A DNA stretch of 64,000 nt from an uncultured beta proteobacterium (GTDB lineage: Bacteria > Pseudomonadota > Gammaproteobacteria > Burkholderiales > Burkholderiaceae_C), in NCBI GenBank assembly GCA_903905735.1, contig CAIVHU010000057.1, positions 14,002 through 78,001 of the forward strand, given 5' to 3'. Below the pieces are notes generated by a model. That model was not told where the DNA came from and did no database searches. It worked only from the letters and a program-made list of their open reading frames with translations. Within the stretch, counting starts at the first letter, position 1. Each line of letters opens with the position of its first letter. Positions 1,118-61,781 of this stretch are shown here, in pieces. A program made the position numbers and the translations under genes.

Positions 1118-1154
1118 ATAGCAATATACCCTTTAAGGATAAGGGCTAGAGGTC
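1118..1154 (+). repeat. Copy of short AT-rich dispersed repeat (core AGC..-spacer-ATAAGGGCTAGAGG)
   Basis: atagcaatataccctttaaggataagggctagaggtc matches the reference copy at 32396-32432. Intergenic, downstream of clsB. Confidence 0.7.
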
Positions 1155-1208
1155 AATAACCTTTATAACAAAACACTGCTACTATCAGGCTTCAACCAAT
1201 CTACTTCG

Positions 1209-1919
1209 ATGCAACCCATGAACCCTGTTGACCCAGACGAAGGCACGCCGGTATCTGTCAAGATCCGTGAGCGCATTCAGGCCGCGCGCAAACGATTCCA
1301 CGCCAATGACAACATTGCAGACTTCATTCAGCCTGGCGAGTTGGATATGTTGCTTGACGAGGTCGAGGGAAAGATGAAGGGTGTGCTCAGCAGCCTGGTG
1401 ATCGACACCGAGCACGATCACAACACCGACAAAACCGCCCGGCGTGTCGCCAAGATGTACCTCAAGGAAGTCTTTCAGGGGCGTTATGTGCCCCAGCCGG
1501 CCATCACCGAATTCCCCAATGCCGAGCATTTGAACGAGCTGATGATCGTCGGTCCCATCACTGTGCGCAGTGCCTGCAGCCACCACCTGGTGCCGATTGT
1601 GGGCAAGCTCTGGATTGGCGTGCTGCCCAACGAGCACACCAACGTCATTGGCTTGTCCAAATATGCGCGGCTGGCTGAATGGATCATGGGCCGCCCTCAG
1701 ATCCAGGAAGAAGCGGTGGTGCAACTGGCCGACCTGATCCAGCGAAAAACCCAGCCCGATGGCCTGGCCATCGTCATGGAAGCCACACACTTTTGCGTGG
1801 GCTGGCGCGGTGTGAAAGATTTGGACAGCAAGATGATCAACTCGGTCATGCGCGGCAGTTTCCTCAAGGATGCCAACTTGCGCCGTGAGTTCCTGTCTTT
1901 GATTCCCCAGAAAGGTTGA
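1209..1919 (+). CDS. folE: GTP cyclohydrolase I (type IA)
   Basis: Collinear with E. coli FolE: RRVAKMYLKEVFQG, SACSHHLVPIVG (Zn/catalytic CxHH), VIGLSKYARL..RPQIQE, HFCVGWRG. Confidence 0.85.
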   Translation: MQPMNPVDPDEGTPVSVKIRERIQAARKRFHANDNIADFIQPGELDMLLDEVEGKMKGVLSSLVIDTEHDHNTDKTARRVAKMYLKEVFQGRYVPQPAITEFPNAEHLNELMIVGPITVRSACSHHLVPIVGKLWIGVLPNEHTNVIGLSKYARLAEWIMGRPQIQEEAVVQLADLIQRKTQPDGLAIVMEATHFCVGWRGVKDLDSKMINSVMRGSFLKDANLRREFLSLIPQKG

Positions 1920-1921
1920 TC

Positions 1922-2344
1922 ATGTTGGTACGTTTGCTTTACGCCAGCCGGGCGGTGGATATCAGCCCTGAAACCATTGAAGCCATCCTGCACGAATGCC
2001 GCAGCCGCAACCCCGAGAGCGGCATCACCGGTGTGTTGTGTTATGGCGGTGGCATCTTCTTGCAGGTGATCGAAGGTGGCCGCATGGCCATCAGCCAGCT
2101 CTACAACCAGATCCAGCGCGATGCCCGCCACAAAGATGTTGTGCTGCTGAATTACGAGGAAATCACCGAGCGGCGCTTTGCGGGCTGGACCATGGGTGAG
2201 GTCAACATGACCCGCATCAATGCCTCCATCTTGCTTAAATATGCTGAAAAACCCGAGCTGGACCCGTATTCGGCATCGGGCAAGGTCTCCATGGCGCTGC
2301 TCGAAGAGTTGATGGCCACCGCCTCGGTGATTGGTCGAGCCTGA
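1922..2344 (+). CDS. Short BLUF-domain blue-light FAD photoreceptor
   Basis: RLLYASRA (photoactive Tyr), ITGVLCYGGGIFLQVIEG (Gln), RRFAGWTMG (Trp/Met). ATG at 1922 lies 2 nt after the folE stop (1917-1919), with aaagg as RBS. Confidence 0.85.
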   Translation: MLVRLLYASRAVDISPETIEAILHECRSRNPESGITGVLCYGGGIFLQVIEGGRMAISQLYNQIQRDARHKDVVLLNYEEITERRFAGWTMGEVNMTRINASILLKYAEKPELDPYSASGKVSMALLEELMATASVIGRA

Positions 2345-5062: not shown

Positions 5063-5605
5063 ATGGCTGATCTGCGCGCTAGCCACCTGCGCTGCTGTCT
5101 GCTGGTGGTCTGCCTGGGTGGTTTGTTTGCTCCTGTTATTGGAGCTGCAGAGGCTTATTTTGCAAGGGCTAAAAGTATTCCTGATGGTGATACCTTGTGG
5201 GTGCAGTCGACATCGGGCGGGCCGCCCCGCAAGCTGCGCCTGCAAGGCATTGATGCCCCGGAGATCTGCCAGCGTGGCGGTGTGGCCGCACGTGATGCCC
5301 TTCGCGCTCTTGTGGGGCAGCGCGAGCTGAGCATTCAGGTCAAGTACCAGGATGACTACGGACGTGGCCTGGCCCGAATCCATGTGGGTGGTCAGGACGT
5401 GGCAGCGGTGTTGGTGCAGCGTGGGCAGGCCTGGTCGAACCGCTGGCGGCGCAGTCTTGGGCCTTATGCCGCTGAGGAAGCTGCAGCGCGCCAAGCCAAA
5501 CGGGGCCTGTTTGCCGAGCCTGATCCGGAATGGCCTGGTGATTTTCGGCGGCGCAACGGCAGTTGTTACATCGCCGATGAGCGTGGCGCGTTCAAACTGA
5601 AGTAG
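5063..5605 (+). CDS. Secreted thermonuclease (staphylococcal nuclease-like)
   Basis: Signal-peptide-like N-terminus (LLVVCLGGLFAPVIGAAEA). SNase motifs DGDTLWV, LRLQGIDAPE, DDYGRGLA, KRGLF. ATG at 5063 preferred over the ORF-track start at 4964. Confidence 0.75.
   Translation: MADLRASHLRCCLLVVCLGGLFAPVIGAAEAYFARAKSIPDGDTLWVQSTSGGPPRKLRLQGIDAPEICQRGGVAARDALRALVGQRELSIQVKYQDDYGRGLARIHVGGQDVAAVLVQRGQAWSNRWRRSLGPYAAEEAAARQAKRGLFAEPDPEWPGDFRRRNGSCYIADERGAFKLK
5142..5176 (+). repeat. Intragenic copy of the short AT-rich dispersed repeat (inside the nuclease signal-peptide region)
   Basis: gagctgcagaggcttattttgcaagggctaaaagt versus reference agctgtcagcgcttaatttataagggctagaagc. Translated as GAAEAYFARAKS. 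Confidence 0.55.
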
Positions 5606-6365: not shown

Positions 6366-7835
6366 TCAGTTGTCTTTTTTCTCTTCGGCGCGTTCCACCT
6401 GGGTCTTGCTGACCAGCACCGGCAGGCCTTTGAGCTGCAGAATGGCTTGCTGTAACTGGAAGTCCTTGTCAGAGCCGTATTCGGGCAACTTGCGTTCAGA
6501 GGCCGGCTTTTTCATCTCTTCTTCGAGCCGTTTGCGTGCTTCGTCGCGCTCTTTTTCTTGGGTCACATCCTTGACCTCGGCGCCTTGTCCGCTGCTCAGG
6601 TGCTTTTCCAGATCGGCCTCGCGCGTGCGCAGGGCGGCATACAGGTTGCCTTGTTCGGTTTCATCCACCATCACATCAGGCACGATGCCTTTGGCCTGGA
6701 TCGACTTGCCGCTGGGGGTGTAGTAGCGGCTGGTGGTGAGCTTGAGCGCTGCGGTCGGGCAGTTGTCCATGCGGAAGGCCGAATCCAGACACACGGCGGT
6801 CTGCACCGAGCCCTTGCCAAAGGTCTGGCTGCCCAGTAATTTGGCACGGTGGTGGTCTTGCAAGGCACCGGCCACAATCTCGCTGGCCGAGGCCGAGCCT
6901 TCGTTCACCAGCAAGACCAAAGGCACGGTTCTGAGCGCCTGCCGGGTCGCAGGGTCGAGTTGATCCAGCGGATCGTCACCATGGCGGGCATAGAACTGCG
7001 GAGAGGCCTTGTAAGTGAATTTGCTTTCCGGCAACTGCCCATTGGCCGACACGACAGTGACGTTTTCTGGCAGGAACGCTGCCGAAATTGCCACTGCTGC
7101 ATCCAGGTAGCCACCCGGGTCATTGCGCAGATCCAGCACCAGACCCTTCAGATTGGGTTCCTGCTTGTACATGTCTTCCACCTTGTGCGCAAAGTCAGCC
7201 ACCGTGCGCTCCTGGAACTGGCTCAGCCGCACCCAGCCGTAGCCCGGCTCGACAATTCGCGCCTTGACGCTCTGTGTCTTGATCACTTCACGCGTGATGC
7301 TCACGTCAAAAGTGCGGTTCTCATCTTTTCGGTAAATGCTGAGCAGCACCGAGGTGTCGGGCTCGCCACGCATGCGCTTGACACCTTCGTTGAGGGTCAG
7401 CCCCTTGACGGGTGTGTTGTCAATTTTGACGATCAGGTCGCCCGGCTTGAGTCCGGCCTTGAAAGCGGGCGAGTCTTCAATGGGCGAGACGATCTTGATG
7501 TAGCCGTCTTCCTGCGAAATCTCGATGCCAACCCCGACAAACTTGCCGGTGGTGCCCTCATTGAAATCTTTCAGGGCTTTCTGATCCAGATACACGGAAT
7601 GCGGGTCCAGGCCCGCCACCATGCCTGCAATGGCATCGGTGATGAGCTTTTTCTCGTCCACCGGCTCCACATAGTTGCTTTTGATCATGCTGAAAACGGC
7701 CGCGAGTTGCTGCAGCTCCTCCAGGGGCAGCGGTGCCAGTGAGCCCCGCGCCGCTGTTTGAAACGAGATGCTGGCCAGCGCGCCAGCCAGCGCACCAGCA
7801 GACAGCAGACCGACAATTTTCATTTTTTGACCCAT
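6366..7835 (-). CDS. ctpA: Carboxy-terminal processing protease (S41) with PDZ domain
   Basis: PDZ segment (SPAFKAGLKPGDLIVKID), S41 catalytic region LVNEGSASASEIVAGALQD, and a signal-like MKIVGLLSAGALAGALA. The ORF-track N-terminal extension to 7979 would overlap gpmA, so ATG at 7835 is used. Confidence 0.85.
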   Translation of the reverse strand: MGQKMKIVGLLSAGALAGALASISFQTAARGSLAPLPLEELQQLAAVFSMIKSNYVEPVDEKKLITDAIAGMVAGLDPHSVYLDQKALKDFNEGTTGKFVGVGIEISQEDGYIKIVSPIEDSPAFKAGLKPGDLIVKIDNTPVKGLTLNEGVKRMRGEPDTSVLLSIYRKDENRTFDVSITREVIKTQSVKARIVEPGYGWVRLSQFQERTVADFAHKVEDMYKQEPNLKGLVLDLRNDPGGYLDAAVAISAAFLPENVTVVSANGQLPESKFTYKASPQFYARHGDDPLDQLDPATRQALRTVPLVLLVNEGSASASEIVAGALQDHHRAKLLGSQTFGKGSVQTAVCLDSAFRMDNCPTAALKLTTSRYYTPSGKSIQAKGIVPDVMVDETEQGNLYAALRTREADLEKHLSSGQGAEVKDVTQEKERDEARKRLEEEMKKPASERKLPEYGSDKDFQLQQAILQLKGLPVLVSKTQVERAEEKKDN

Positions 7836-9511: not shown

Positions 9512-9964
9512 ATGGCCGACACTCCCAACCCCGTTTTCCAGATTCAGCGCGTCTATCTCAAAGAAGTGTCTCTGGAGCAACCCAATTCGCCGGCGATTTT
9601 GCTGGAGCCCGAGCAGCCCACGGTGGATATCCAGCTGGGCGTGAACGCCTCGCCAGTGGCCGATGGCATGTTTGAAGTGGTCGTCACGGCCACGGTGCAT
9701 ACCAAGGTCAAGGACAAAACCGTGTTTTTGGTGGAAGCCTCGCAAGCGGGCATTTTCGAGATCCGCAACCTGCCACAAGAGCAGATGGGTCCGATCATGG
9801 GCATTGCCTGCCCTCAAATCGTTTACCCGTATCTGCGCGGCAACGTGGCCGACCTGATTCAGCGTGGCGGCTTTCCGCCGGTGCATCTGTCAGAAATCAA
9901 CTTCCAGGCCATGTACGAGCAGCAGCAGGCCGGACAGTCTGAAGCCGCTCCCGCTGTTCAATAA
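9512..9964 (+). CDS. secB: Protein-export chaperone SecB
   Basis: [19 protein letters not shown] and [33 protein letters not shown] at 9512. Confidence 0.9.
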
Positions 9965-9980
9965 GTTACAAGCTTTTTAG

Positions 9981-10024
9981 GCCTCCAGACCGCGTATATC
10001 CTGCCTCAGAAGCTATGAAAATAA
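9981..10024 (-). repeat. Copy of short AT-rich dispersed repeat, reverse orientation, overlapping the gpsA start codon
   Basis: gcctccagaccgcgtatatcctgcctcagaagctatgaaaataa versus the reverse complement of the reference, gcttctagcccttataaattaagcgctgacagctattt. Confidence 0.5.
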
Positions 10025-11037
10025 TAGTTCTTGGTGCGGGAGCGTGGGGCACGGCTCTGGCCGCCAGTGCGGCGGCGCAGGGCCCGCAGCATCGCGTCAC
10101 CCTGTGGGCACGCGACATGCCCCAGATGCAGGTCATGCGCGAACGTCGCATCAACCAGCGCTACCTGCCCGGCGTTGAGCTGCCCGCCGCGCTGGACTTC
10201 AGTGCCGCGCCTGCGCGGGACATGTCGGGTCTGGTGGCCGGTGCTGAACTAGTGGTGGTGGCTACGCCCATGGCGGCGTTACGCCAGATGTTGACTGCGC
10301 TGCACGGCTGCCGGGTGCCGGTGGCCTGGTTATGCAAAGGCTTTGAAACGCCGATTTCAGAGCCTTTTGGCCTTCTAGCCCATGAAATACAAGGGCAAGT
10401 AGCTCCTGAAATGCTAGCGGGTGCGCTGAGCGGACCGAGTTTCGCGCTGGAGGTGGCACGTGGTCAGCCCACGGCGCTGGTGGCGGCCAGTGCACACGAG
10501 CCGGTGCGTCAGGCGCTGGTGGCGGCGTTTCACAGTTCGGCCTTGCGTGTCTATGCCAACGACGACATCGTCGGCGTGGAGGTCGGTGGCGCGGTGAAAA
10601 ACGTGTTGGCCATCGCCACCGGCCTGTGTGATGGCCTGAACCTGGGCCTGAACGCCCGCGCTGCCCTGATCACCCGTGGCCTGGCCGAGATGACCCGTCT
10701 GGGTGTGGCGCTGGGCGCACGCTCCGAGACCTTCATGGGCTTGAGCGGCCTGGGTGACCTGGTGCTGACCGCCACCGGCGATTTGTCGCGCAACCGGCAG
10801 GTGGGCCTGGCGCTGGCGCAGGGGCAATCGCTTCAGCAGGCCACCCGTGCGCTGGGTCACGTGGCCGAAGGCGTTTACAGCGCGCGCACGGTGGTGCAGC
10901 GTGCAGTCCATCTCGGGGTGGACATGCCGATTGCCCAGGCAGTGCTGGATTTGCTGGATGGTCACATGACGCCGCAGCAGGCTGTGGGCCGCCTGATGGG
11001 CCGCGAGCCCACCGCCGAGCTGGCCGCTGCGGCCTGA
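10015..11037 (+). CDS. gpsA: NAD(P)H-dependent glycerol-3-phosphate dehydrogenase
   Basis: [34 protein letters not shown], and [17 protein letters not shown], collinear with E. coli GpsA. Confidence 0.95.
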
Positions 11038-11938: not shown

Positions 11939-11979
11939 TTTCGTGTAGTTTGCTATTGAATTTGATGGATGGAGGCCGC

Positions 11980-13113
11980 ATGACCGATACCCCACTCGCT
12001 CTGAAAGAGGTGGATTACGAGCAGCCGAAAAGTGAGCTGGAAGGTGGCTCCGTCTGTGCCACCAAGCACGCCTGGGCGCGGGTGCCGGTCGAACCCAGTG
12101 CGTCTGAGCGCGCTGCTCTGAAGGACAAAATCCGCCGCCTACTCAAAGAAAAAAACGCGGTGATGGTGTCGCACTATTACGTGCACCCGGACCTGCAGGA
12201 CCTGGCCGAGGAAACCGGCGGGCTGGTCAGCGACTCGCTGGAGATGGCGCGTTTTGGCCGCGACCACGCTGCCACCACGCTGGTGGTGTCGGGCGTGCGC
12301 TTCATGGGAGAAACCTCCAAAATCCTCTCGCCCGAAAAGCGTGTCCTGATGCCCGACCTGGACGCCACCTGTTCGCTCGATCTGGGCTGCCCGGTGGACG
12401 AGTTTTCAGCCTTTTGTGACGCGCACCCGGACCGCACGGTGGTCGTCTATGCCAATACCAGCGCGGCGGTCAAGGCACGCTCGGACTGGCTGGTGACTTC
12501 CAGCTGCGCGCTGGACATCGTCAAAGCGCTCAAAGACCAGGGCAAAAAGATTTTGTGGGCACCGGATCGGCATCTGGGCGGTTACATCCAGCGTGAGACC
12601 GGTGCCGATATGGTGATGTGGGGCGGCTCGTGCATCGTGCATGACGAGTTCAAGGCGTTTGAACTGCAGGACCTGTTGCATGAGCACCCCGGTGCCAAAG
12701 TGCTGGTGCACCCTGAGTCACCCGCTGCCGTGGTGGCACTGGCCGATGCGGTGGGCTCTACCTCCGGAATCCTGAAGGCAGCCCACGAGATGCATGCCAG
12801 GGAATTCATCGTCGCCACCGACAACGGCATGATGCACAAGTTGCGCACGCTGAACCCCGGCAAAACCTTCATCGAAGCGCCGACCGCCGGTAACAGCGCC
12901 ACCTGCAAGAGCTGCGCGCACTGCCCTTGGATGGCCATGAACGGCTTGGCCGACGTGGCCCGCGTGCTCGAAACCGGTGCCAACGAGGTCCACGTGGACC
13001 CGGCGCTGGGACTGCGCGCCCGGCTGCCCATTGACCGCATGCTGGCCTTCACCGCGGCGCTAAAGCAGGGGCCAGTGCCTGGAAGCCTGGTAGCCCATAT
13101 CGGTGCTGCCTGA
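11980..13113 (+). CDS. nadA: Quinolinate synthase
   Basis: [25 protein letters not shown], the three Fe-S cysteine regions ([24 protein letters not shown]). ATG at 11980 is preceded by ggagg. Confidence 0.9.
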
Positions 13114-13154
13114 GCTGCTATTAAATTTATACTGATTGCCGCCATTGATCGGCC

Positions 13155-16885: not shown

Positions 16886-16935
16886 ATAGCTACATTAGTT
16901 GTAGCTATTAGCGCAATGCCAACAAGGGCTGAGGG
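16886..16935 (+). repeat. Long copy of short AT-rich dispersed repeat with upstream hairpin arm
   Basis: atagctacattagttgtagctattagcgcaatgccaacaagggctgagggg. AGCTAC (16888-16893) and GTAGCT (16901-16906) form an inverted repeat. Confidence 0.7.
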
Positions 16936-17014
16936 GTGATTTTAAGGTCAATGATGCGTGAATGCCAGTGTGACCGCTTTGACCAGCCAACTGCAGATAC
17001 AAAGTACTCGTTCC

Positions 17015-24631: not shown

Positions 24632-26100
24632 ACATGCGATTTTTCAATCACCACGAGTTGGCCCTGAGCTGGCCTGAAACATCAGCCCGACTGAGGCCGG
24701 TAGCACGTGCACTGACCCTGCTGCTGCCCATCATGCTCGCGGCCTGTGCGACACAGTCGCCCAAGCCACCCGCCGCTGTGGCGGCACCGATGCAGTTCAA
24801 GGAGAACGGCATCTGGAAGCGCGCAGGTTCATTGCCCGGCACGGCCGAGGTGTCGGCGTCGTGGTGGCAGTTGTTTCATGATCCGGTGCTTGACGATTTG
24901 CAGGCCCAACTGCTCCAGGGGAATCAAAGCCTGAAAAGCGCCGCAGCCCAATTGCAGTCGGCCCAGGCCACTGTGCGGGCCAGTCAGCAAGCCCTGTGGC
25001 CAACGCTGTCGGTAGGGCTGAGTGGCACACGTTCTGGCGGGCCTGGATCGGCCAGTGGCGCCACCGGCAATTCGGTGTCGCTGGCTGGCAATGCGGCCTG
25101 GGAGCTCGACCTGTGGGGCCGCCTGGCACAGGCCGGCACGGTGGCTGGCGAGCGGGCACAGGCGAGCGCCGACGATCTGGCGGCAGCCCGGTTGTCAGCG
25201 CAGGCCACCTTGGCGCAGACATATTTTTCCATGCGTGCCACAGAAGCCCAGCAGGCTCTGCTGCAGCGCACTCAGGAAGCCGATCAAAAAATCCTCGAGA
25301 TGACGCAGGCGCGATACGCGTCCGGCGTGGCGGCCGAAAGCGATGTCCTGCAGGCCCAAACGCAGCTCAAGAGTGTGCAAGCGCAAGGTGATGAAGCTGC
25401 CTTGCAGCGCGCTTTGCTGGAACATGCCATCGCGGTGCTGTTGGGGCGCGTGCCCTCCGGGTTTTCAATCGCGCCCACCGGGCAATTGCCCGAGCCGCCG
25501 CCGGTGCCGACATTTTTGCCATCCACCTTGTTGGCGCGCCGCCCGGACATTGCCTCTGCCGAGCGCAACGTGGCAGCGGCCTATGCGCAGATCGGTGTCG
25601 CTGACGCGGCCTTTTTCCCCGATATTTCGCTCTCAGCCAGTGGAGCTTACCGAAATTCGGCACTGGGCGGCTTGCTGGCAGCACCCAATGCGCTTTGGTC
25701 CCTGGGGCCGTCCCTGGTGGCGACGGTGCTCGACGGTGGTGCGCGGCGGCTGGCCAGTGACCAGGCCCGTGCCAGCGCAGACCAGAGCGTGGCGACCTAC
25801 CGTCAGACCGTGTTGACGGCGGTGCAGGAGGTGGAAGACAACCTGATGACGGTGGATCAACTCGATCGCGAACTGCTGTCGCAGCGGGACGCGTTGCAGG
25901 CCGCCCGACGTAACCTGCAGATTACCCAGAGTCAGTACCAGGCGGGCACGGTGAGCTTCCTCAACGTCGCCAGTGTCCAGACAGCGGTGTTGGGGAGCGA
26001 GGCCAGTGTGCTGTCGCTGCGCAACAGACAGTTGGCCGCCATCAATCTGTTGCTGAAAAACGCGGGTGGACGCTGGGCTGTGCTTGCTCAAAAGAATTAG
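24628..26100 (+). CDS. Outer-membrane efflux lipoprotein (NodT/OprM family)
   Basis: Lipobox LAAC, WW..F.DP.L..L, two repeated OEP halves, and a 4-nt overlap with mdtC. Confidence 0.85.
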
Positions 26101-26111
26101 GTATCAAATTG

Positions 26112-26152
26112 GCATTCAGCCCTTATTGATAAAGGGTAAGCAGCTACTATAA
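26112..26152 (-). repeat. Copy of short AT-rich dispersed repeat, reverse orientation
   Basis: gcattcagcccttattgataaagggtaagcagctactataa versus the reverse complement of the reference copy. Confidence 0.65.
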
Positions 26153-26341
26153 ATATAGTGAAAAGCGGTGACGCCCTGACGCCATCCGCCAGGGCCCCTT
26201 GGCAGGTTGCAGGCCTGAATCGTGGACATGTCGGCGCATTTCAGATGTAACGCATACCGAACTTCATTGCAATCGGTGTGCAACCTTGATACGGCAAACT
26301 TGGTTTCAAGTTATTTGATTCTCATGATCCAAATCATCCGT

Positions 26342-28836: not shown

Positions 28837-28837
28837 T

Positions 28838-32432: not shown

Positions 32433-32443
32433 ACAAAAGCCTC

Positions 32444-37868: not shown

Positions 37869-39455
37869 ATGAAGATTCCCGGTCTGGACATTGAATTCAC
37901 CACCTTGCCCGCACCCGTGCCGGTGGGGTACGGGCAGGTGAACGCCGAACAGTGGCAAACCGCTGCCACCGCCGTGCGTGATGCCGGTGGGCGGCTGGTG
38001 GCGCTGTGGGCCGGAAAAGCTATTGAAGATGTAGCTGTCAGCGCAGGTGGCATAAGGGCTGAGGCCATATTTGTTGCTTATGTCACCTTGGAAGGTCTGT
38101 TCTGGCTGGCGTTGCCACTGGGCAGCGGCCATGGGCGTGCGGGCTATCCCGATGTGTCTGTCGTATTTCCCTGCGCCAACCGCATGCAGCGCGCTGCCGC
38201 CGATCTGTCTGGCGTGCACGCCGAGGGTGCACACGACACCCGTCCCTGGTACAACCACGGTGCCTGGGCGGCGAATCATCACCCGCTGCTGCAAGACCCG
38301 CAAGCCCTACCCAAGCCGGAGCCCGGCGCGCTGCAAGACTACCCGTTTGTGCGGGTGGAAGGTGACGGCGTGCATGAGATTGCTGTCGGCCCGGTGCATG
38401 CCGGCATCATCGAACCAGGGCACTTCCGCTTCTCCATCGTGGGCGAAAAAATCCTGCGGCTGGAACAGCGCCTGGGCTACACCCACAAAGGCGTCGAGCA
38501 ACGCATGACGCAGATGCCGGCGCTGGAAGCGCATTGTCTGGCCGGGCGCGTGTCGGGTGACTCCACTGTGGCCTACACCTGGGCTTACTGCATGGCGCTG
38601 GAGTCGGCTTGCACCACCCGCATTCCGTCGCGTGCGGCGTGGCTGCGCGCGCTGATGCTCGAATGCGAGCGGGTTGCCAACCATTTGAACGATCTGGGTG
38701 CGCTGGGCAATGACGTGGCGTTTGCCTTTGCGCTGGCGCAGTTTTCACGCCTGCGCGAAGACTGGTTGCGCGCCTGCAAAGCGGCGTTTGGTCACCGGCT
38801 GATGATGGACGGTATCGTGCCTGGCGGTGTCAATGCCGACATTCCTGCGGCCGGGCGAGACCAACTTCAGGCACTTTGCCATGAGTTGGTGCCCACTGTG
38901 CACAAGCTGTTTGACGTGTTTGAGTCCCACGCTGGGTTGCAGGACCGCTTCATGGTCACCGGCCGGGTGCGGCCCGCACTGGCGGCGCAACTGGGCATGA
39001 CGGGCCTGGCCGGGCGCGCCAGTGCCCAGAGCTGGGACCTGCGCTGCGACCACCCGTTCGAGCCCTACGACAAATTGCGCGTGGTCATGGCCAGCCATGC
39101 GCGTGGCGATGTGGGCGCGCGAGCCTCGGTGCGTTTTCAGGAGGTGTTTGAGTCGATTCGCCTGATTGAGCGCCTGCTGCGCGAGATGCCGGAGGGCGAG
39201 ATTCGCACCGACGTGACTTTGCCAGCCCAGTCCAGCCGGGGTGCAGGCTGGGTGGAAGGCTGGCGTGGTGAGATTCTGGTGGCGCTGGAACTGGCCGGGC
39301 CGGATCAGGGCCACCGCATCGAGCGCTGCCACCTGCATGACCCGTCGTGGCAAAACTGGCCGGTGCTTGAGCATTCGGTCATGAAAGACATCGTGGCCGA
39401 TTTCCCGCTCATCAACAAGTCGTTCAACCTGAGTTATTCGGGGCAAGACCTATGA
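37869..39455 (+). CDS. Fused NuoC-NuoD / HyfG-HycE-like 'large subunit' lacking the Ni-Fe cysteine ligands
   Basis: GPVHAGIIEPGHFRFSIVGEKILRLEQRLGYTHKGVE is typical of group-4 large subunits. However, the N-terminal CxxC position reads RVSGDS (38541-38576) and the C-terminal DPCxxCxxR position reads FNLSYSGQDL (39411-39452). Confidence 0.85.
   Translation: MKIPGLDIEFTTLPAPVPVGYGQVNAEQWQTAATAVRDAGGRLVALWAGKAIEDVAVSAGGIRAEAIFVAYVTLEGLFWLALPLGSGHGRAGYPDVSVVFPCANRMQRAAADLSGVHAEGAHDTRPWYNHGAWAANHHPLLQDPQALPKPEPGALQDYPFVRVEGDGVHEIAVGPVHAGIIEPGHFRFSIVGEKILRLEQRLGYTHKGVEQRMTQMPALEAHCLAGRVSGDSTVAYTWAYCMALESACTTRIPSRAAWLRALMLECERVANHLNDLGALGNDVAFAFALAQFSRLREDWLRACKAAFGHRLMMDGIVPGGVNADIPAAGRDQLQALCHELVPTVHKLFDVFESHAGLQDRFMVTGRVRPALAAQLGMTGLAGRASAQSWDLRCDHPFEPYDKLRVVMASHARGDVGARASVRFQEVFESIRLIERLLREMPEGEIRTDVTLPAQSSRGAGWVEGWRGEILVALELAGPDQGHRIERCHLHDPSWQNWPVLEHSVMKDIVADFPLINKSFNLSYSGQDL
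38018..38066 (+). repeat. Intragenic in-frame copy of the short AT-rich dispersed repeat (inside the HyfG-like gene)
   Basis: agctattgaagatgtagctgtcagcgcaggtggcataagggctgaggcc. 13/13 (tagctgtcagcgc) and 9/9 (ataagggct) identities to the reference copy. Translated as AIEDVAVSAGGIRAEA. Confidence 0.75.
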
Positions 39456-40581: not shown

Positions 40582-42696
40582 TCAATGTATCCGCAATCCC
40601 GGCTGGGCACCCGGGAAAGGCTCCAGCACATAAATCCCGGGTTGCGCTTTGTCGTCGGCGTGGCTGGCGGCCAGCACCATGCCTTCGGATACGCCAAACT
40701 TCATCTTGCGCGGGGCTAGGTTGGCCACCAGCACGGTGAGTTTGCCGCTCAGGTCTTCGGGCTTGTACATGCTGGCGATGCCTGAAAACACATTGCGGGT
40801 CGTTGGCTGACCCGCTTCATCGACCTCGCCCACGTCCAGGGTGAGTTGCAACAGCTTGGTGGAGCCTGCCACCGCCTGGCATTGCACAATTTTGGCGATG
40901 CGCAAATCGATTTTGGCAAAGTCGTCGATGCTGATGGTGGGCGCAATGGCCTCTCCGCCGGGTAGTGCAGATGCTGCACTTTCTGTAGCTGTCAGCACTT
41001 GTTCTGCCTGGACTGGAGGCTCAAAAAGCGCTTCAAGTTGTTTGATGTCGACACGCTGCATCAGGTGCTGGTAAGTGCCGATGATGTGGCCGGTTTCCAG
41101 CGGCTCGCCCACATTGCCAAAGCTCAACGGCGGGACGTTCAGGAAGGTTTCGACTCTGGCGGCCAGCTCAGGCAGCACCGGCTTGAGGTAGCAGGTGAGG
41201 ATCCTGAAGGCCTTGATGCACACCGTGCACACGCCTTGCAGGCGTGCCTCTTGTCCGGCCTGTTTAGCCAGGTCCCACGGCTTGTTGGCATCCACGTAGG
41301 CGTTGACACGGTCGGCCAGCAACATGGTTTCGCGCAGCGCTTTGGCGTATTCACGCTCTTCGTACAGGCGCTCGATGCTGCCGCGTTCAATGCGCAACTG
41401 GTGCAACAGCGCGGCACCGTCTTCGGGCACATCGCCCAACTGGCCCTCAAAACGCTTGGCGATAAAGCCCGCAGCGCGGCTGGCAATGTTGACAAACTTG
41501 CCGATCAAATCGCTGTTGACCCGCGCCATGAAGTCGTCGGCGTTGAAGTCGATGTCTTCGTTGCGGGCGCTGAGTTTGGCGGCCAGGTAGTAGCGCAGCC
41601 ACTCGGGGTTCATGCCCAGGCTCAGGTATTTGAGCGGGTCCAGCCCGGTGCCACGGCTTTTGCTCATCTTTTCGCCGTTGTTGACCGTCAGAAAGCCGTG
41701 CACAAAGATGTTGTCGGGCGTTTTGCGGCCGCTGAAATGCAGGCAGGCGGGGAAAAACAGCGTGTGGAACGTGACGATGTCCTTGCCGATGAAGTGGTAC
41801 TGCTCCAGCTCCGGGTTGGCCATGTAGGCTTCGTAATCGATGCCACGACCGTCCAGCAGGTTTTTCAGCGAGGCCAGGTAGCCAATCGGCGCGTCCAGCC
41901 AGACGTAAAAGTACTTACCCGGCGCATCGGGGATTTCGATGCCGAAATAAGGCGCGTCGCGGCTGATGTCCCAGTCGCCCAGGCCTTCACTTTGGCTGCC
42001 ATCCGGGTTGGTGCGCACGGTGAACCATTCCTTGATCTTGTTGGCCACCTCGGGCTGCAGCTTGCCGTCTTGTGTCCACTGCTCCAGAAACGCCACGCAG
42101 CGCGGGTCAGACAGCTTGAAGAAAAAGTGCTCCGAGCTGCGCAGCTCGGGCTTGACACCCGATAGCGCCGAGTAAGGGTTGATCAGGTCGGTGGGCGCAT
42201 ACACCGCACCGCAGTTCTCACAGTTGTCGCCGTACTGGTCCTTGGCATGGCACTTGGGGCACTCGCCCTTGATGAAGCGGTCCGGCAGGAACATGTTTTT
42301 CTGCGGGTCGAAAAACTGCTCGATGGTGCGGGACTCAATCAGCGAGCCGTCCGAGTTGTCGCGCAGGTCACGGTAGATGGCTTGCGCCAACTCGTGGTTT
42401 TCGGGCGCATCGGTGCTGTGCCAGTTGTCAAAGCTGATGTGAAAACCGTCCAGGTAGGGCTTGCGCCCGGCGGCGATGTTGGCCACAAACTGCTGCGGCG
42501 TGATGCCAGCCTTTTCAGCCGCGATCATGATCGGCGCGCCATGGGTGTCGTCAGCACACACAAAATCGACCGCGTTGCCCATCATCCGCTGGTAACGCAC
42601 CCAGATATCGGCCTGGATGTATTCCATGATGTGGCCAATGTGAAAGTTGCCATTGGCGTAGGGCAGGGCGGTGGTAACGAACAGTTGACGGGTCAT
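40582..42696 (-). CDS. metG: Methionyl-tRNA synthetase with C-terminal tRNA-binding domain
   Basis: [15 protein letters not shown] (HIGH), CPKC..C..CG zinc knuckle, KMSKSRG (KMSKS), and a C-terminal Trbp111-like domain (DLRIAKIV...). Confidence 0.95.
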
Positions 42697-47925: not shown

Positions 47926-48105
47926 AATTACTATCTTAATGGTAGCTGCTTAGGCAATCTAGAAAAGCACTAAAGGCTGTTTTTGCTTAAAGAATTCAGA
48001 CCAATTGTCAACGCAAAACGTTGTACGCTCTGCCGCTGGCCGATTTGGTAGCATGACCCGGCTCTGGGGATGGCTCCGGTGGCCAAGCATGTATCTGGGG
48101 ACACG

Positions 48106-49796: not shown

Positions 49797-50447
49797 TCAA
49801 CCCTTGGACGCCATCAGCAGCACCACCAGCGCGCCCGCGCCGCCGTCCGCCGGCTTGGCCTGCACAAAGGCCAGCACCTCGTTTTTTTGCACCAGCCAGC
49901 TGTGCACGCGGCTTTTCAGGATGGGGGCCTTGCCGGGCGAGCCCAGACCCTTGCCATGCACCACCCGCACGCAGCGGATGCCGTGGCGGTGCGCCTCGCG
50001 GATGAAGATGCTCAAGGATTCGCGCGCGTCGTCACGGCGCAGGCCATGCAGATCCAGCTGGCGCTGGATGCTCCAGTCGCCCCGGCGAAGCTTGCGCGTC
50101 ACATCCACGCCGATGCCGGGGCGGCGAAAGCTCAGGTGTTCGTCGGTGTCAAGCAGGGTGCTCACATCAAACTCGTCGCTGATGGCTTCCTTGAGGACCG
50201 CTTTTTCGTCTTTCTGGTACTGCATCGCCAGTGGCATGACCTGCTCTTTTTTATGCAGCACGTGGCGCTTGTCTGGTAAGGGCTGGACGGCTCCAGCCGC
50301 CCGAATGAACAGGTCGCGGTCCGAGGCCGCCTGTTTCACCGCTTTGACCTGCGCGCTAGCCTGCAAGGCGCGATGTTGGGTTTGCTCGGCAATAGCGCGC
50401 TTGACGATTTTCAGGTCGGTCAGCGTCTTGACTTTGAGCGGCTTCAC
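49797..50447 (-). CDS. Smr-domain protein (SmrA-like endonuclease)
   Basis: C-terminal Smr domain [40 protein letters not shown]. Confidence 0.75.
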
Positions 50448-51803: not shown

Positions 51804-52772
51804 ATGACCAATGCCGCTGTTCAAAACATTTTGCTGGCCGAGCCTCGCGGCTTTTGCGCTGGCGTGGACCGGGCCATCGAGATCGTCGAAAAGGCCCTGG
51901 CCAAGTTTGGCGCGCCCATCTACGTGCGCCACGAGATTGTGCACAACACCTACGTGGTGGACGACCTGAAAGCCAAAGGTGCTATCTTTATTGAAGAACT
52001 GGACGACGTGCCGCCTGGGGCGACGCTGGTTTTTTCGGCCCATGGCGTGAGCCGTGCGGTGCAGCAGGAGGCCCAGGCGCGTGGCTTCCAGATTTTTGAT
52101 GCCACCTGCCCGCTGGTCACCAAGGTGCATGTGGAAGTGGCCAAACTCGCCAAAGAGGGGTTCGAGTTCATCATGATCGGCCACAAAGGCCACCCCGAGG
52201 TCGAAGGCACCATGGGCCAGCTCGACGGGGGTATCCATTTGGTCGAAGAGGTCGAAGACGTGGCCCGCATCGCCCCGCGTCAGACCGCCAAACTGGCGGT
52301 GGTGACCCAAACCACCCTGAGCGTGGATGATGCCGCCCACATTGCCACGGCCATCAAGGCGCGTTTCCCCAGCGTGCGCGAGCCCAAACACCAAGACATC
52401 TGTTACGCCACGCAAAACCGCCAGGACGCGGTCAAGCTGATGAGCGCGCAGGTCGATATCGTCATCGTCGTGGGCAGCCCCACCAGTTCCAACAGCAATC
52501 GACTGGCCGAAGTGGCGCGCAAGCTGGGCACGCCGGGTTACATGGTCGATCGCGCTGAAGACCTGCAACCACAGTGGTTTGAAGGCTGCTCGCGCGTCGG
52601 GCTGACCGCCGGTGCTTCGGCCCCCGAGATTCTGGTGCGCCAGGTGGTGGAGCGCATCAAGGCGCTGGGTGCGGTGTCGGTGCAAACCATGCCGGGCCAG
52701 CCCGAGACGGTGAAATTCCCGTTGCCCAAGGGCTTGCGGCTGGAATCTGACGACGACGAAGCCATCGCCTGA
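51804..52772 (+). CDS. ispH: 4-hydroxy-3-methylbut-2-enyl diphosphate reductase
   Basis: [33 protein letters not shown], and [11 protein letters not shown], covering the three Fe-S cysteines. Confidence 0.95.
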
Positions 52773-52785
52773 TGGTATTAATTCA

Positions 52786-54223
<1,438 letters not shown>

Positions 54224-55617: not shown

Positions 55618-56184
55618 ATGAAATATGCCAAACGTGCCGGAACTAATGACGCGCCCCGGCTGATCTGCCTGATCGGTGCCGAATGCACCGGCAAGACCGT
55701 TTTGGCGCAGCAACTTGCCGCAGTTTTTGGCGGTGTGGTGGTGCCCGAGGTGCTGCGCGACTGGTGCATCACCCACGCCCGCACGCCGCAGGCCCATGAG
55801 CAGGCGGCGCTGCTGCAAGCGCAAATTCATCAAGAAAATCAGGCTAAGGCCCTTATAAATAAAGAGCAGGGCGCTATGGTTTTCTGTGATACCGCCCCGT
55901 TGTTGACCGCCGTGTACAGCCTGCACTACTTTGCCGACGACAGTCTGCTGGCCGTTGCCCACGCGCATCACCATCGCTATGTCCTGACGCTGTGGCTGCA
56001 GCCTGATCTGCCTTGGGTGGCCGATGGTCTGCAACGCGACGGGCTGGACACCCAGGCGGCGGTGCACGCCCTGCTGTCGCAGCAGCTGGCAGGCCATGCC
56101 CCAGTGGTGCGCATCACTGGCAACGGGCCGGCGCGCCTGCAGGCGGCGCGCTCGGCGCTGACGACGGCAATTGCAAGACTTTGA
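55618..56184 (+). CDS. P-loop ATPase, NadR C-terminal (ribosylnicotinamide kinase-like, AAA_28) family
   Basis: Walker A IGAECTGKTVLAQQLA and a Walker B-like MVFCDT. Size and pattern match stand-alone NadR-kinase-like ATPases. Confidence 0.6.
   Translation: MKYAKRAGTNDAPRLICLIGAECTGKTVLAQQLAAVFGGVVVPEVLRDWCITHARTPQAHEQAALLQAQIHQENQAKALINKEQGAMVFCDTAPLLTAVYSLHYFADDSLLAVAHAHHHRYVLTLWLQPDLPWVADGLQRDGLDTQAAVHALLSQQLAGHAPVVRITGNGPARLQAARSALTTAIARL
55841..55878 (-). repeat. Intragenic in-frame copy of the short AT-rich dispersed repeat, reverse orientation (inside the P-loop ATPase gene)
   Basis: aggctaaggcccttataaataaagagcagggcgctatg. 12/12 identity (gcccttataaat) to the reverse complement of the reference. 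Translated as QAKALINKEQGAM. Confidence 0.6.
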
Positions 56185-58887: not shown

Positions 58888-58975
58888 CAACGCTTCACCG
58901 GGGGTGTCTGGCGCAAGCCGGGCTGAGAGAGTCCCCACACCTGATCTGGATCATGCCAGCGTAGGGAGCGTGATG
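58888..58975 (+). promoter_or_regulatory. TPP (THI-box) riboswitch in the thiB leader
   Basis: ccgggggtgtctggcgcaagccgggCTGAGAgagtccccacaCCTGATCTGGATcATGCCAGCGTAGGGAgcg contains the invariant CUGAGA and ACCUGAUCUGGAUAAUGCCAGCGUAGGGA-type core. It lies 77 nt upstream of the thiamine ABC operon. Confidence 0.9.
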
Positions 58976-59051
58976 GGTTGGACCAAACCGCTTGCCGGTG
59001 GACCCCTTGGAACCCGCGCTTCACGGCGTTGGCGCTTTTTAAGGGAGTGTC

Positions 59052-60074
59052 ATGAACCGTCGTCTTTTCGCCCTGGCCGCCACCGCGCTGGCCGGCTCCA
59101 GTTTTTCCACCCTGAGCCACGCCGCCGATGAGCTGCGCGTGATGGTGCACAGCTCGTTTGCCCTGCCCAAGCATTTGCTGGCGCAGTTTGAAGCGAAAAA
59201 TGGCGTGAAACTGGCGATCATCAAGGGTGGCGACGCGGGTGAGATGCTCAACAAACTCATCCTGACCCGCGCCCGGCCTATCGCCGATGTGGTGTATGGC
59301 ATTGACAACACCCTGGCCAGCAAAGCGCTGGCCGCAGGTGTGCTGGAACCCGCGCTGCCCCCGGTTGCGGGCGCAGTGGATGCGCAGTTGGGCGAGGCGC
59401 TGGCCGCTGTCGACTACGGTTTTGTCAACTTGAACTACGACAAAGCGGCGGTGGCCAAAAGCGGCACGCCGCTGCCCAAAACCCTGCAAGATCTGACGTT
59501 GCCCGCCTACAAGGGCTGGCTGGTGGTGCCCAATGCGGCCACGTCCAGCCCCGGATATGCCTTTTTGCTGGCCACGATTGCCGGCATGGGTGAGGAGCAA
59601 GCCTTCGCCTGGTGGGCTCAGATGCGTGCCAACGGCCTCAAAGTGGTCAAGGGCTGGAGCGAGGCCTACTACACCGAATTCAGCCTGAACAAAGGCAGCT
59701 ACCCGCTGGTGGTGAGCTACGCCACCAGCCCGGCGGCCGAAGTGTTTTACGCCAAGAACAAACCCGCCGAGTCGCCCACCGCCAGCCTGAATTTGCCCGG
59801 CGGCGTGTTCCGCCAAGTGGAAGGCGTGGGGCTGATCAAGGGCACCGCGCAAAAGGCTGCGGCCCTGAAGTTTGTTGATTTCATGCGCTCAAGCCCGGTG
59901 CAGGCAGCGTTGCAGACCGAGATGTGGATGTACCCCGCCGTGCCCAAAACGGCGCTGGCCCCGGCAATGCGCCATGCCATCCAGCCCATTGCGTTTGAGA
60001 ACCTGCCCCCGCAAGTGATTGCCGGCAAGGGCGCGGCCTGGGCGGCGCGCTGGACGCAGGTGGTATTGAAGTAA
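59052..60074 (+). CDS. thiB: Thiamine/TPP ABC transporter periplasmic binding protein
   Basis: Signal peptide ending SHA. Family-1 solute-binding protein directly downstream of the TPP riboswitch and upstream of thiP/thiQ-like genes. Confidence 0.8.
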   Translation: MNRRLFALAATALAGSSFSTLSHAADELRVMVHSSFALPKHLLAQFEAKNGVKLAIIKGGDAGEMLNKLILTRARPIADVVYGIDNTLASKALAAGVLEPALPPVAGAVDAQLGEALAAVDYGFVNLNYDKAAVAKSGTPLPKTLQDLTLPAYKGWLVVPNAATSSPGYAFLLATIAGMGEEQAFAWWAQMRANGLKVVKGWSEAYYTEFSLNKGSYPLVVSYATSPAAEVFYAKNKPAESPTASLNLPGGVFRQVEGVGLIKGTAQKAAALKFVDFMRSSPVQAALQTEMWMYPAVPKTALAPAMRHAIQPIAFENLPPQVIAGKGAAWAARWTQVVLK

Positions 60075-60101
60075 GGCGCTGGCAGCGCCGCAGGCCGCAG
60101 C

Positions 60102-61781
60102 ATGACACGGTGGGGTTCAAGCAGGCAGCGCGGCTCGGCAAGTCGCGGCTTCTGGCTGGCGCTGTTACCCGCGGCAGCCTTGGTGCTGATGCTGCTGGCA
60201 CCGCTGGCCCGCCTGGCCTTCGAAGGCTTTTCCGGAAACCTGAACCCCAGCGCCGACCTGTCGATTTGGAAACCCTGGCAAGACGACTACCTGCGTGCCC
60301 GCGTGATCTGGTCACTGGCGCAGGCGGCGATCACCTGCGTGCTGGCGCTGGGTTTGGGTCTGCCGCTGGCCTGGGTGCTGGCGCGTTTTCAGTTCAGGGG
60401 CCGCACGCTGGTGCTGCGCCTGCTGATGCTGCCATTCGTGGTGCCTACGCTGGTGGCCGCTTTGGGCGTTCTGGCCTTGTGGGGGCCGCACGGCTTGATC
60501 AGCGGGGAATTGGGCATCAACCTGCAGGACACGCCCTGGCTGCTGCTCTACGGCAACCTGTTTTTCAACCTGTGCCTGGTGGTGCGCGCGGGTGTGGATG
60601 CGCTGGGGCAGGTGAACGCCCGTCAGGTGGCTGCGGCGCGCTCGCTGGGGGCCACGCCCTGGCGCGCTTTCTGGCGGGTGGAGTGGCCCGCGATTGCACC
60701 GTGGCTGGTGTCGAGCCTTTGCCTGGTTTTTTTGTACTGTTTTGCCGGTTTTGGGCTGGCGCTGGTGCTGGGCGGCCAGCGCTATGCCACGGTAGAGGTC
60801 GAGATTTACACCCTGGTGGCGTATGAACTGCATCTCGGTCAGGCCAGCGTACTGGCGCTGTGGATGCTGGTACTCACCGGGGCGGTGGCAGTGGCCTATG
60901 CCGCGCTGGAAAAGTGGCTGGCTGCACCGTTGCGTTCGGCACCGATGGCGCGCCAGAGGCCGCAAGGGATCGGCCAATGGTTGAGTCTGCTGGGCGCCCT
61001 GGCGGTGTTGTTTGCGGTGTGTGCACTGCCGATCATTGCTATCTTTATCAAAGCTGCTAGCGCTTTATGGACGGGGGCTAGCGGCATATTTGATGCTGAA
61101 GCGCTGGCAGCCATGTGGAACACGGGGCGATTCTCTTTTGTGGCGCTGTTGATGGCAACGGTGTTGGGCGTGTTACACGCGCTGGCAGCGCAGGCTTCGG
61201 TAGCCTGGCGGGCGGCGGCGTTTTTGCCTTTTGTGGTGTCGCCAGTCACCGTGGCGTTTGGCTTGCTGCTGCTGTACCCGTCGTGGACGGCAAGTTTGCC
61301 CTTGCTGCTTGCCGCCTACGCGGTGCTGGCTTACCCGTTTGTCGCCAAGTCGCTCTCAGCCGGGCTGGATGGTTTACCTGTGCATCTGGGGCAAGCGGCG
61401 CGCACGCTGGGGGCCAGCCCGTGGCGTTGTTTCTGGCGCGTGACCCTGCCCTTGCTGGCACCGGCGCTGCGCCGGGGCATGGCGTTTGCGGCGGCCACCG
61501 CCCTGGGCGAATTTGCCGTGACGCTGTTTTTGTCGCGCCCCGAGTGGGCCACGCTCACCACCCTCATTTACCAGCGGCTGGGCCGACCGGGTCAGGCCAA
61601 TCTGGACGCCGCGATGGTGCTGGCCTGTGTGCTGATGGCGCTGGCGCTGGCTACGTTCTTGCTGATCGAGTGGCCGGGCGCTGACAAGTCTCCCTTCAGA
61701 TCGCAGCCCGCCCGGCCTGGCCGCAACAATCTGGGTCGCCACGCTGCGCTGGCCATGACAGAATCTTCTGGCAACCCATAG
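60102..61781 (+). CDS. thiP: Thiamine ABC transporter permease (duplicated BPD-type permease)
   Basis: 559 aa with two tandem permease halves, each carrying an EAA-like loop (AARSLGATPWRAFWRVEWP and AARTLGASPWRCFWRVTLP). Confidence 0.8.
   Translation: MTRWGSSRQRGSASRGFWLALLPAAALVLMLLAPLARLAFEGFSGNLNPSADLSIWKPWQDDYLRARVIWSLAQAAITCVLALGLGLPLAWVLARFQFRGRTLVLRLLMLPFVVPTLVAALGVLALWGPHGLISGELGINLQDTPWLLLYGNLFFNLCLVVRAGVDALGQVNARQVAAARSLGATPWRAFWRVEWPAIAPWLVSSLCLVFLYCFAGFGLALVLGGQRYATVEVEIYTLVAYELHLGQASVLALWMLVLTGAVAVAYAALEKWLAAPLRSAPMARQRPQGIGQWLSLLGALAVLFAVCALPIIAIFIKAASALWTGASGIFDAEALAAMWNTGRFSFVALLMATVLGVLHALAAQASVAWRAAAFLPFVVSPVTVAFGLLLLYPSWTASLPLLLAAYAVLAYPFVAKSLSAGLDGLPVHLGQAARTLGASPWRCFWRVTLPLLAPALRRGMAFAAATALGEFAVTLFLSRPEWATLTTLIYQRLGRPGQANLDAAMVLACVLMALALATFLLIEWPGADKSPFRSQPARPGRNNLGRHAALAMTESSGNP
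61037..61086 (+). repeat. Intragenic in-frame copy of the short AT-rich dispersed repeat (inside thiP)
   Basis: attgctatctttatcaaagctgctagcgctttatggacgggggctagcggc. Translated as IAIFIKAASALWTGASG, in the same element frame as the HyfG-like and nuclease copies. Confidence 0.6.

Follow-up and report, generated by a model that had tools for sequence, protein, structure and literature searches.

A 70-bp AT-rich repeat family of the Comamonadaceae, possibly a REP/BIME-like recognition sequence held in place by constraint on its nucleotides

The subject of this work is a dispersed, AT-rich repeat found in 64,000 nucleotides of DNA from an uncultured beta proteobacterium (contig CAIVHU010000057.1, positions 14,002 to 78,001), the whole of which is called the window below. 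The window is chromosomal DNA of 61.6% G+C from a metagenome scaffold; it carries housekeeping genes, and its proteins share 81-85% identity with their counterparts in Rhodoferax species. The best explanation for the repeat, to which a probability of roughly 45% may be given, is that it is a vertically inherited recognition sequence, similar to the repetitive extragenic palindromic (REP) sequences and bacterial interspersed mosaic elements (BIMEs), and that it is held in place by constraint at the nucleotide level. A bolder formulation is conceivable and is offered tentatively: the element may be a family-specific recognition sequence of 70 bp, actively maintained at fixed, roughly even positions by selection on a protein site or by an uptake- or conversion-type drive that overrides codon usage. 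It would then be a long-motif counterpart of the uptake signal sequences (USS) of Pasteurellaceae and the DNA uptake sequences (DUS) of Neisseriaceae, or of BIMEs, and not a transposable element.

A preliminary description, made from the letters of the window, had reported a dispersed AT-rich repeat family, and its existence is borne out by the following observations. A profile hidden Markov model (HMM) trained on 162 copies from other genomes only, which is the source of the window bit scores given below, finds 11 strong copies at 19.8-53.2 bits and five weaker ones at 10-14 bits. None was found in 40 dinucleotide-preserving shuffles of the window, which served as the null for the profile score and reached a maximum of 9.4 bits. 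An HMM trained only on seven intergenic window copies recovers the intragenic copies that had been held out, at 38018 (E 2e-7), 61037 (E 2e-6) and 10370 (E 8e-5). The two half-motifs by which the family was first recognized themselves occur more often than in dinucleotide shuffles (5 matches where 0.19 are expected, and 11 where 3.08 are), and 12 of the copies listed at that time align without gaps.

When 195 copies were aligned together with their flanks, the information content fell to zero on either side of model positions 3-72. This delimits the element as a discrete unit of 70 bp, and not one of 35-50 bp as had been proposed. Its consensus is AATTGCTAT-N-AAATT-N-ATAGCTGCTTGCGCTTATTCCATAAGGGCTAGAGGCC-N-ATTTGAC-TTATAAATT, and a search with half-motifs never found the conserved block outside full elements. 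The unit contains two dyads. The first, GCTAT-N7-ATAGC, belongs to all full copies; what had been described as an 'extra upstream arm' of the longer copies (AGCTAY-N7-GTAGCT) is in fact part of every full-length one. The second is an imperfect palindrome of about 33 nt, GCTGCTTGCGCTTAT-N3-ATAAGGGCTAGAGGC, in which 11 of 15 positions are paired, with one G-T in addition and three conserved mismatches. It is preceded by the head RTAG, whose TAG hardly varies and whose first base is A in most copies and G in a minority (four GTAGCT copies in the window). The element has sequence 'dialects' (AAGGGCTAGAGGC versus AAGCGnTAGCAGC), and in a minority subfamily the perfect palindrome AAGCGnTAGCAGC replaces the conserved imperfect one. 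In 122 copies that had not been chosen by the search pattern, no compensatory stem changes were found, the paired fraction being equal to the expectation from column composition at nearly all pairs of both dyads. It is the sequence that is conserved, and not the structure.

A scan with the exact two-block pattern, using one genome per species, places the family taxonomically: among the matches listed, almost all are Comamonadaceae, and the genera listed are Rhodoferax, Polaromonas, Giesbergeria, Simplicispira, Hylemonella, Acidovorax, Comamonas, Diaphorobacter and Extensimonas. Placement was studied on 205 copies scoring at least 20 bits, with crude gene calls that left about 17% of the DNA intergenic; about 79% of the copies lie in this 17%. 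In the 148 intergenic contexts that were classified, the flanking genes are on the same strand as the copy in 51, on the opposite strand in 41, convergent in 35 and divergent in 21. Neither an orientation rule relative to genes nor a bias with GC skew or replication strand (82 versus 95) was found. The copies practically fill the spacers in which they lie: except in divergent spacers, the median distance to a flanking gene is 2-22 nt. Neighboring copies are mostly direct and more than 100 nt apart, and the only close inverted 'pairs' are self-matches of the palindromic subfamily.

The density of copies is patchy. In an unbiased set of 80 metagenome loci anchored on nadB (964 kb) it is 0.033 per kb overall, whereas the window has 0.17 per kb. 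Certain relatives reach the density of the window (the window and L122 have 0.17-0.25 per kb; L-numbers denote loci from other genomes compared with the window) and others have no copy in 21 kb, as is the case for L124 and L142 (about 21 kb each). Within the window the copies are spaced more evenly than at random, the coefficient of variation of the gaps being 0.52 (p 0.006 with all 16 copies and 0.02 when the 11 strong ones are taken alone). The widest interval, of 9.2 kb, spans an RND efflux operon whose genes abut or overlap, leaving almost no intergenic space. The even spacing is suggestive of a site under selection.

The family had been glimpsed, although not defined, in 2017, because motif pairs reported by Tong et al. 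(2017; PMC5217627) as 'potential novel motifs' of Polaromonas naphthalenivorans have spacings that match the element exactly. These pairs are TAGCT(N)33TTTGA, which corresponds to model positions 20-24 and 58-62, ATAGCT(N)22CAAAAG, and pairs of the GCTAT(N)6 type, in which the first dyad can be recognized. Of ATAGCT(N)22CAAAAG, 125 copies were counted; 101 of them are intergenic, and 34 of these lie between convergent genes, proportions similar to those found here. The same work reported GCTTAT(N)5AAGCG for Acidovorax ebreus, and Rhodoferax ferrireducens exceeded all other genomes in its number of motif pairs. The report differs from the present one in that it deals with pairs of pentamers, genome by genome, with no unit, family-wide distribution, orthology or overprint of coding sequence. 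The earlier statement that no equivalent had been described thus stands in so far as there is no named description in this lineage, and falls in so far as its motif pairs had already been published; a literature search with sequence strings of the element returned irrelevant primer matches only. The Acidovorax ebreus motif corresponds to the subfamily with a perfect palindrome of 13-14 bp (GCTGCTAACGCTTG…CAAGCGTTAGCAGC), members of which are found in L053 (~5203, -), L167 (~9075, -), L032 (~6367, -), L005 (~1763, +) and L031 (~581, +). This subfamily may be an ancestral or a terminator-like form.

The copies persist at orthologous sites. Eight further loci are syntenic with positions 1-21 kb of the window (L201-L204 and L207-L210). 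The same syntenic sites are occupied in seven lineages (the window, L122, L201, L204, L207, L209 and L210), whose proteins are about 80% identical; the shared sites are the PLD-folE spacer, the SNase gene, the secB-gpsA spacer, gpsA, the nadC-nadA spacer and the 3' end of nadA, and L201 alone shares seven sites with the window. In L202, L203 and L208 there is no match of 10 bits or more over 18-21 kb each; these three share their downstream gene order and probably form one clade. Since a degenerate relic of the element is found in the PLD-folE spacer of L203, loss in this element-free clade is suggested, rather than gain elsewhere. Other sites behave likewise. The copies upstream of serS in L101, L104 and L111 are orthologous and share derived changes, copies upstream of scpA occur in at least ten lineages (L122, L127-129, L135-137, L156, L167 and L201), and copies in the metG linker stand at the same codon position in L144 (34.7 bits) and L137 (22.2 bits), although the length of the linker varies among orthologues.

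Copies lying in frame within genes had been noticed previously, and they are confirmed: genic copies are confined to the two stop-free frames of the element, 13 of 15 in the co-oriented and 21 of 28 in the antisense direction. The copy in the ThiP-like ABC permease gene (61035-61102, +; 35.1 bits, E 3.8e-10) leaves no gaps in an alignment with the L101 and L124 orthologues, and it matches 39 of 58 consensus positions in the window compared with 19 of 58 in L101. The weak copy in the SNase gene (5126-5175, +; 10.7 bits, 25.6 bits in the L201 orthologue) likewise lies in an alignment that is free of gaps at the site against the element-free L202 and L203, with conservative residue differences. 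The copy within gpsA (10351-10412, -, antisense to the gene; 23.6 bits, E 1.5e-6) underlies a segment of GpsA that shows no variation in length and almost none in sequence among 120 homologues, and which can be aligned to native sequence of solved GpsA structures. None of the copies in the SNase, gpsA and ThiP-like genes is an insertion.

The gpsA copy is found at the same codons in the seven lineages that bear the family, and is absent in three that lack the family and have the same protein; the differences are mainly synonymous. The bearing lineages encode the segment as GGC CTT CTA GCC CAT GAA ATA CAA ... GTA GCT CCT, whereas the element-free lineages encode the same residues as GGC CTG CTG/C GSC CAY GAA RTY CAG ... 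GTS GCN CCY. The G+C content at third codon positions (GC3) under the element is 0.12-0.35 in bearing and 0.62-0.88 in element-free lineages, compared with 0.56-0.79 and 0.70-0.78, respectively, for the whole gene or its remaining codons. Among bearing lineages the identity at synonymous third positions is 76% under the element and 52% in the rest of gpsA (Fisher p 2.5e-7, calculated on lineage pairs that are not independent). Such a codon pattern would not result from a selfish insertion that has been left to decay. A second copy (9963-10029, -; 19.8 bits, 59.7 bits in L201) fills the 50-nt secB-gpsA spacer and extends over the first five gpsA codons, which encode the universal start MKIIV (ATG AAA ATA ATA GTT in the window). 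The isoleucine codons of this start are ATA and ATT in bearing lineages and ATC and ATT in element-free ones. The spacer measures 50 nt in the bearing lineages and also in the element-free L202, and 44 nt in L203.

Two genic copies are exceptions, in that they are accompanied by changes in length. In the HycE-like hydrogenase large-subunit gene, for which a PDB alignment missed the element region and orthologues were compared instead, the in-frame copy (38015-38083, +; 37.6 bits) lies in a variable loop, in which 57 nt replace the 27 nt of the L122 and L127 orthologues, a net gain of 10 amino acids. In the methionyl-tRNA synthetase gene metG a weak copy (40969-41032, +, antisense to the gene; 14.4 bits) lies in a linker of variable length, with a gain of up to about 20 amino acids. 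The HycE-like protein (37869-39455, +) is 60-65% identical to its L122, L127 and L128 orthologues, compared with 76-89% for neighboring subunits, and its gene also carries a length-changing copy.

By bringing these observations together, a history of the element can be proposed. The 70-bp element would be ancestral to the Comamonadaceae and would have been inherited vertically within the family. Its copies would now be essentially fixed landmarks, kept near the consensus through constraint on double-stranded DNA, and this constraint would most likely come from a lineage-specific protein that binds or processes DNA and for which the element serves as recognition site. If a spacer is lacking, the motif would be written over coding DNA by means of rare AT-ending synonymous codons and conservative replacements. 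Once the constraint or the maintaining factor is lost, as might have happened in the L202/L203/L208 clade, all copies would decay together. The existence of the family, its boundaries and distribution, its persistence at given positions, the lack of indels at three genic copies and the constraint on synonymous sites of gpsA are shown by the data; we infer recognition by a protein, an action at the level of DNA rather than RNA, and the original mode of spread. Action on double-stranded DNA is suggested because either orientation serves and because the asymmetric half is conserved whatever the direction of transcription.

Several points weigh against this interpretation. Close relatives (L202, L203 and L208, and also L124 and L142) live without the family, and any function must therefore be dispensable. 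Since the syntenic lineages that lack the element seem to form a single clade, the 'all-or-none' pattern may represent one evolutionary event. A 70-bp site with several tens of bits is unusually long for a binding site. The synonymous-site test concerns one gene and lineage pairs that are not independent of each other. The interpretation does not account for the origin of a 60-nt match in a conserved coding segment, which may have arisen by point substitutions, driven by selection or by biased transmission, or by gene conversion. Finally, neither inverted pairs of the REP type nor compensatory stem changes were found.

Compared with known systems, the element is closest to REP/BIME in architecture and ecology, yet it fails several REP criteria. 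Like REPs, BIMEs and the REPINs that are associated with RAYT transposases (PMC2817692), it is short, extragenic and present in many copies, lies at gene ends, is enriched between convergent genes and has no target-site duplication. The tetranucleotide that precedes the imperfect palindrome, RTAG in the element and GT(A/G)G in REPs (PMC2817692), may be a further likeness. REPIN-RAYT systems have recently been viewed as long-lived populations that are inherited vertically and can decay as a whole in a lineage (Bertels and Rainey), which fits the element too. Unlike REPs, the element is AT-rich, about twice as long and equipped with a second AT-rich dyad; its copies are singletons with stems that show no compensatory changes, they keep one consensus across genera, and some are written over coding sequence. 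A single betaproteobacterial RAYT, from Thauera, was reported by Nunvar et al. (2010; PMC2817692), with no counterpart in other Betaproteobacteria. The repeated element BRE (Hot et al. 2011; PMC3110155) was considered as well, as it is dispersed in Bordetella and Comamonadaceae and is mostly intergenic with some copies in open reading frames (ORFs). Identity with BRE was rejected: BRE is about 90 bp long, has 69% G+C and forms tandem arrays (PMC3110155), whereas the present element is AT-rich, 70 bp long and single at each site.

The positions of the copies might also be explained by molecular drive of the kind that acts on uptake signals. The element would then be a preferred substrate of a DNA-uptake or recombination machinery and biased transmission would make it accumulate where it stands, in the manner of USS and DUS; this is unlikely. 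Like USS and DUS, the element is specific to a family, occurs in both orientations and at even spacing, and is fitted into genes by codon choice and conservative replacements, with no indels. The existence of dialects (AAGGGCTAGAGGC versus AAGCGnTAGCAGC; PMC5217627) and the decay of the family as a whole in one clade also agree with such a drive. The unit of 70 bp, of which there are no core-only copies, has to be set against the cores of 9-12 bp of uptake sequences. USS and DUS occur at a density of roughly 1 per kb; the element, with 0.17-0.25 per kb, is about five-fold sparser, and 79% of its copies are intergenic. Its sharp ends fit a copied unit better than a graded motif, and the literature search gave no paper tying uptake sequences to it. 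The element behaves like uptake sequences within genes and is far too long and too sparse to be classed with them.

An element that acts in RNA is improbable as well. Its two hairpins would serve as an intercistronic stabilizer, a processing site or a weak bidirectional terminator, as has been reported for some REP, ERIC (enterobacterial repetitive intergenic consensus) and BOX sequences. Copies that fill short intercistronic spacers must be transcribed; copies are enriched between convergent genes here and, with 34 of 101, in P. naphthalenivorans (PMC5217627); and the layout of A-rich tract, palindrome and ATTT, as well as the existence of the perfect-palindrome subfamily, would suit such a function. 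The absence of covariation in either stem argues against it, as does the unremarkable folding of the RNA, which is no better than that of shuffles (z-scores -1.0 to +0.7). Conservation of the asymmetric half (AAGGGCTAGAGGCC) is the same whether a copy lies along or against the direction of transcription. In Rfam, at gathering and at permissive thresholds, the sole match is an unrelated thiamine pyrophosphate (TPP) riboswitch; a tRNA scan found none, and a terminator scan found two incidental sites within copies, its totals being those of the shuffled background. An intrinsic terminator was rejected in view of ordinary folding energies, scan matches at background level and the use of both orientations. 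ERIC, also known as IRU, is an imperfect palindrome of Enterobacteriaceae that occurs across genera in very variable copy number and whose mode of spread is unexplained. The element shares with it the imperfect palindrome common to several genera and the very variable copy number, and differs in that ERIC is 127 bp long, probably acts in transcripts and is not reported to be written over coding sequence.

The preliminary description had likened the family to selfish elements of the REP or MITE (miniature inverted-repeat transposable element) type, and its intragenic copies to the Rickettsia palindromic elements (RPEs). The REP-like ecology (extragenic copies at gene ends, in large number and enriched between convergent genes) holds, and the plain mobile MITE is not supported. 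It is quite improbable that the family is an actively mobile selfish element, whether of MITE, REPIN or RPE type, which inserts into spacers and, in frame, into genes. Mobility would agree with a discrete, sharp-ended unit, with its patchy density among relatives and high density where present (0.17-0.25 per kb), and with the 125 exact copies that one motif pair has in one genome (PMC5217627). The gains of 10 amino acids in the HycE-like protein and up to about 20 in the MetRS linker point in the same direction, and so does the panB-panC spacer, which is 6 nt long in L122 and 111 nt in the window. Other relatives have a different, GC-rich insert in this spacer, and no clean pair of filled and empty spacers was found, the panB-panC spacers differing by other insertions too. 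The copies have neither a target-site duplication (no duplication of 3-6 nt exceeds expectation at any pair of offsets) nor terminal inverted repeats, the ends of the element not being inverted repeats of each other, nor do they form inverted pairs; the missing duplication would, on the other hand, fit transposition of the HUH/Y1 type. The length of 70 bp is not a multiple of 3, yet SNase, GpsA and ThiP keep their frame and length. The same sites are occupied across about 20% protein divergence, and the synonymous sites of gpsA are constrained. No RAYT-like ORF was found in 1.9 Mb of loci by tblastn, with a query (E. coli YafM) of little power; a match in a helicase-like ORF of L102 in this search was rejected as spurious. 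To our knowledge, no RAYT goes with the element. RPEs are insertions of 100-150 bp that add a peptide segment. Like them, the element is a short repeat found between genes and in frame within genes; unlike them, three of its tested genic copies add no residues relative to element-free orthologues and encode native conserved sequence. An insertion of RPE or MITE type is unsupported, because the SNase, GpsA and ThiP-like copies add no residues and gpsA carries a synonymous overprint.

The promoter or binding site of a single transcription-factor regulon is very improbable and is largely refuted by the positional data: although some copies abut start codons (serS, scpA and gpsA) and the first dyad, CTAT-N7-ATAG, shares the T-N11-A arrangement that LysR-type boxes typically have, 35 of the 148 classified intergenic copies lie between convergent genes, no orientation rule exists, a sigma-70 promoter scan flags no copies and the neighboring genes are functionally unrelated.

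If the copies are indeed maintained sites, as the recognition-sequence interpretation would have it, the Comamonadaceae carry an uncharacterised genome-wide system, and the density of 0.17-0.25 per kb extrapolates to several hundred sites. The gpsA gene provides a clean natural experiment, in which the same protein is encoded by opposite codons with and without the family, and which bears on DNA-level limits at synonymous sites. The element is also a sharp taxonomic marker, which could be of use in the binning of metagenomes.

The remaining copies of the window are located as follows. The first (1104-1169, +; 29.1 bits, E 2.8e-8) fills the PLD-folE spacer, overlaps the PLD stop codon and has orthologous copies in L201, L204, L207 and L210. 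A weak copy (13086-13136, -; 11.3 bits) covers the 3' end of nadA and the adjoining spacer; its orthologues reach 28.7 bits in L122 and 17 bits in L201. Further spacer copies lie between a histidine kinase gene and an HlyD-family gene (16886-16943, +; 28.2 bits), between an outer-membrane efflux gene and an LTXXQ gene (26095-26161, -; 46.8 bits, E 9e-14), and between a DUF3460-family gene and scpA, where a near-consensus copy is antisense to both (32382-32454, +; 46.1 bits). In the panC-panB spacer only the right-hand part, model positions 27-72, is present (28837-28882, +; 25.3 bits). One copy directly follows the stop codon of an FtsX-family permease gene (47926-47996, +; 24.7 bits, 51 bits in the L085 orthologue). 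The best one (52771-52840, +; 53.2 bits, E 8e-16) fills the ispH-serS spacer and is directly followed by the serS ATG. A weak in-frame copy lies in an AAA_28 ATPase gene (55823-55883, -; 14.1 bits, E 1.4e-3), with none detected in the L101 orthologue. A marginal partial match in smr (50258-50289, +; 10.1 bits, E 0.024) exceeds every shuffle and has no other support; this copy and the one in the metG linker (40969-41032) were missing from the earlier list. Among the candidates which that list had called weak, 10370-10418 and 47935-47975 are good copies, and 11945-11977 is not significant in the window, its orthologous nadC-nadA spacer carrying copies of 22.6-22.7 bits in L204 and L207. The copies listed at 5142, 13115 and 55841 are weak in the window, the first two having stronger orthologous copies elsewhere.

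Some features next to the copies deserve mention. Certain copies contribute to the context of translation starts: the AGAGG or GGAGG of their conserved block precedes the start codon ATG of hisG-, response-regulator- and threonine-aldolase-like genes by 6-8 nt (L076, ~7084-7160; L009, ~5150-5213; L106, ~5140-5204). Upstream of scpA in L122-L137 the copy has the opposite orientation, and scpA starts 5-8 nt past the first dyad, without a Shine-Dalgarno sequence. The panB-panC spacers of L135, L137, L142 and L165 contain a conserved GC-rich block (…CCCCCTGAGCCGCCTGCGGC…GGCGCCAGCGGCCCGGCGAAGCCGGTTCCGCGG…), a remnant of which, GAAAAGCCGGTTACCGGCC, is found beside the AT-rich element at 28883-28941 of the window; this block may represent an RNA motif or a further family of repeats. 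The 35-40 nt that separate folE from the element (window 1170-1208, …ATAACC-N-TTATAACAAAACACTGCTAC…) are kept in L201, L204 and the element-free L203, which suggests a separate folE leader or operator, although this block has no Rfam match. The TPP riboswitch mentioned above (58890-58985, +; 55.4 bits, above the gathering score) is upstream of the genes for a thiB-like binding protein, the ThiP-like permease, in which an in-frame copy of the element lies, and an ABC ATPase.

The consensus of the element also matches 1,749 records of enterobacterial resistance plasmids. The match is the gcuF/orfF ('DUF1010') cassette of the class 1 integron array dfrA12-gcuF-aadA2, and the Comamonadaceae profile detects it in L205 (3990-4057, +; 47.4 bits, E 1e-14) and L206 (2496-2557, +; 45.1 bits). 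The annotated gcuF ORF reads the element in antisense and then, as judged from inverted core sequences, apparently runs through the attC site of the cassette. The match to Pfam family PF06231 starts where the antisense translation of the element begins, and its first 20 or so positions are that translation; when antisense peptides of unrelated copies were compared with PF06231, one of six gave a weak match. PF06231 seems in part to model translated non-coding repeat DNA, because the gcuF ORF runs through antisense element and apparent attC. The cassette probably came from a Comamonadaceae chromosome, and its copy links the element to a clinical resistance cassette that has spread globally.

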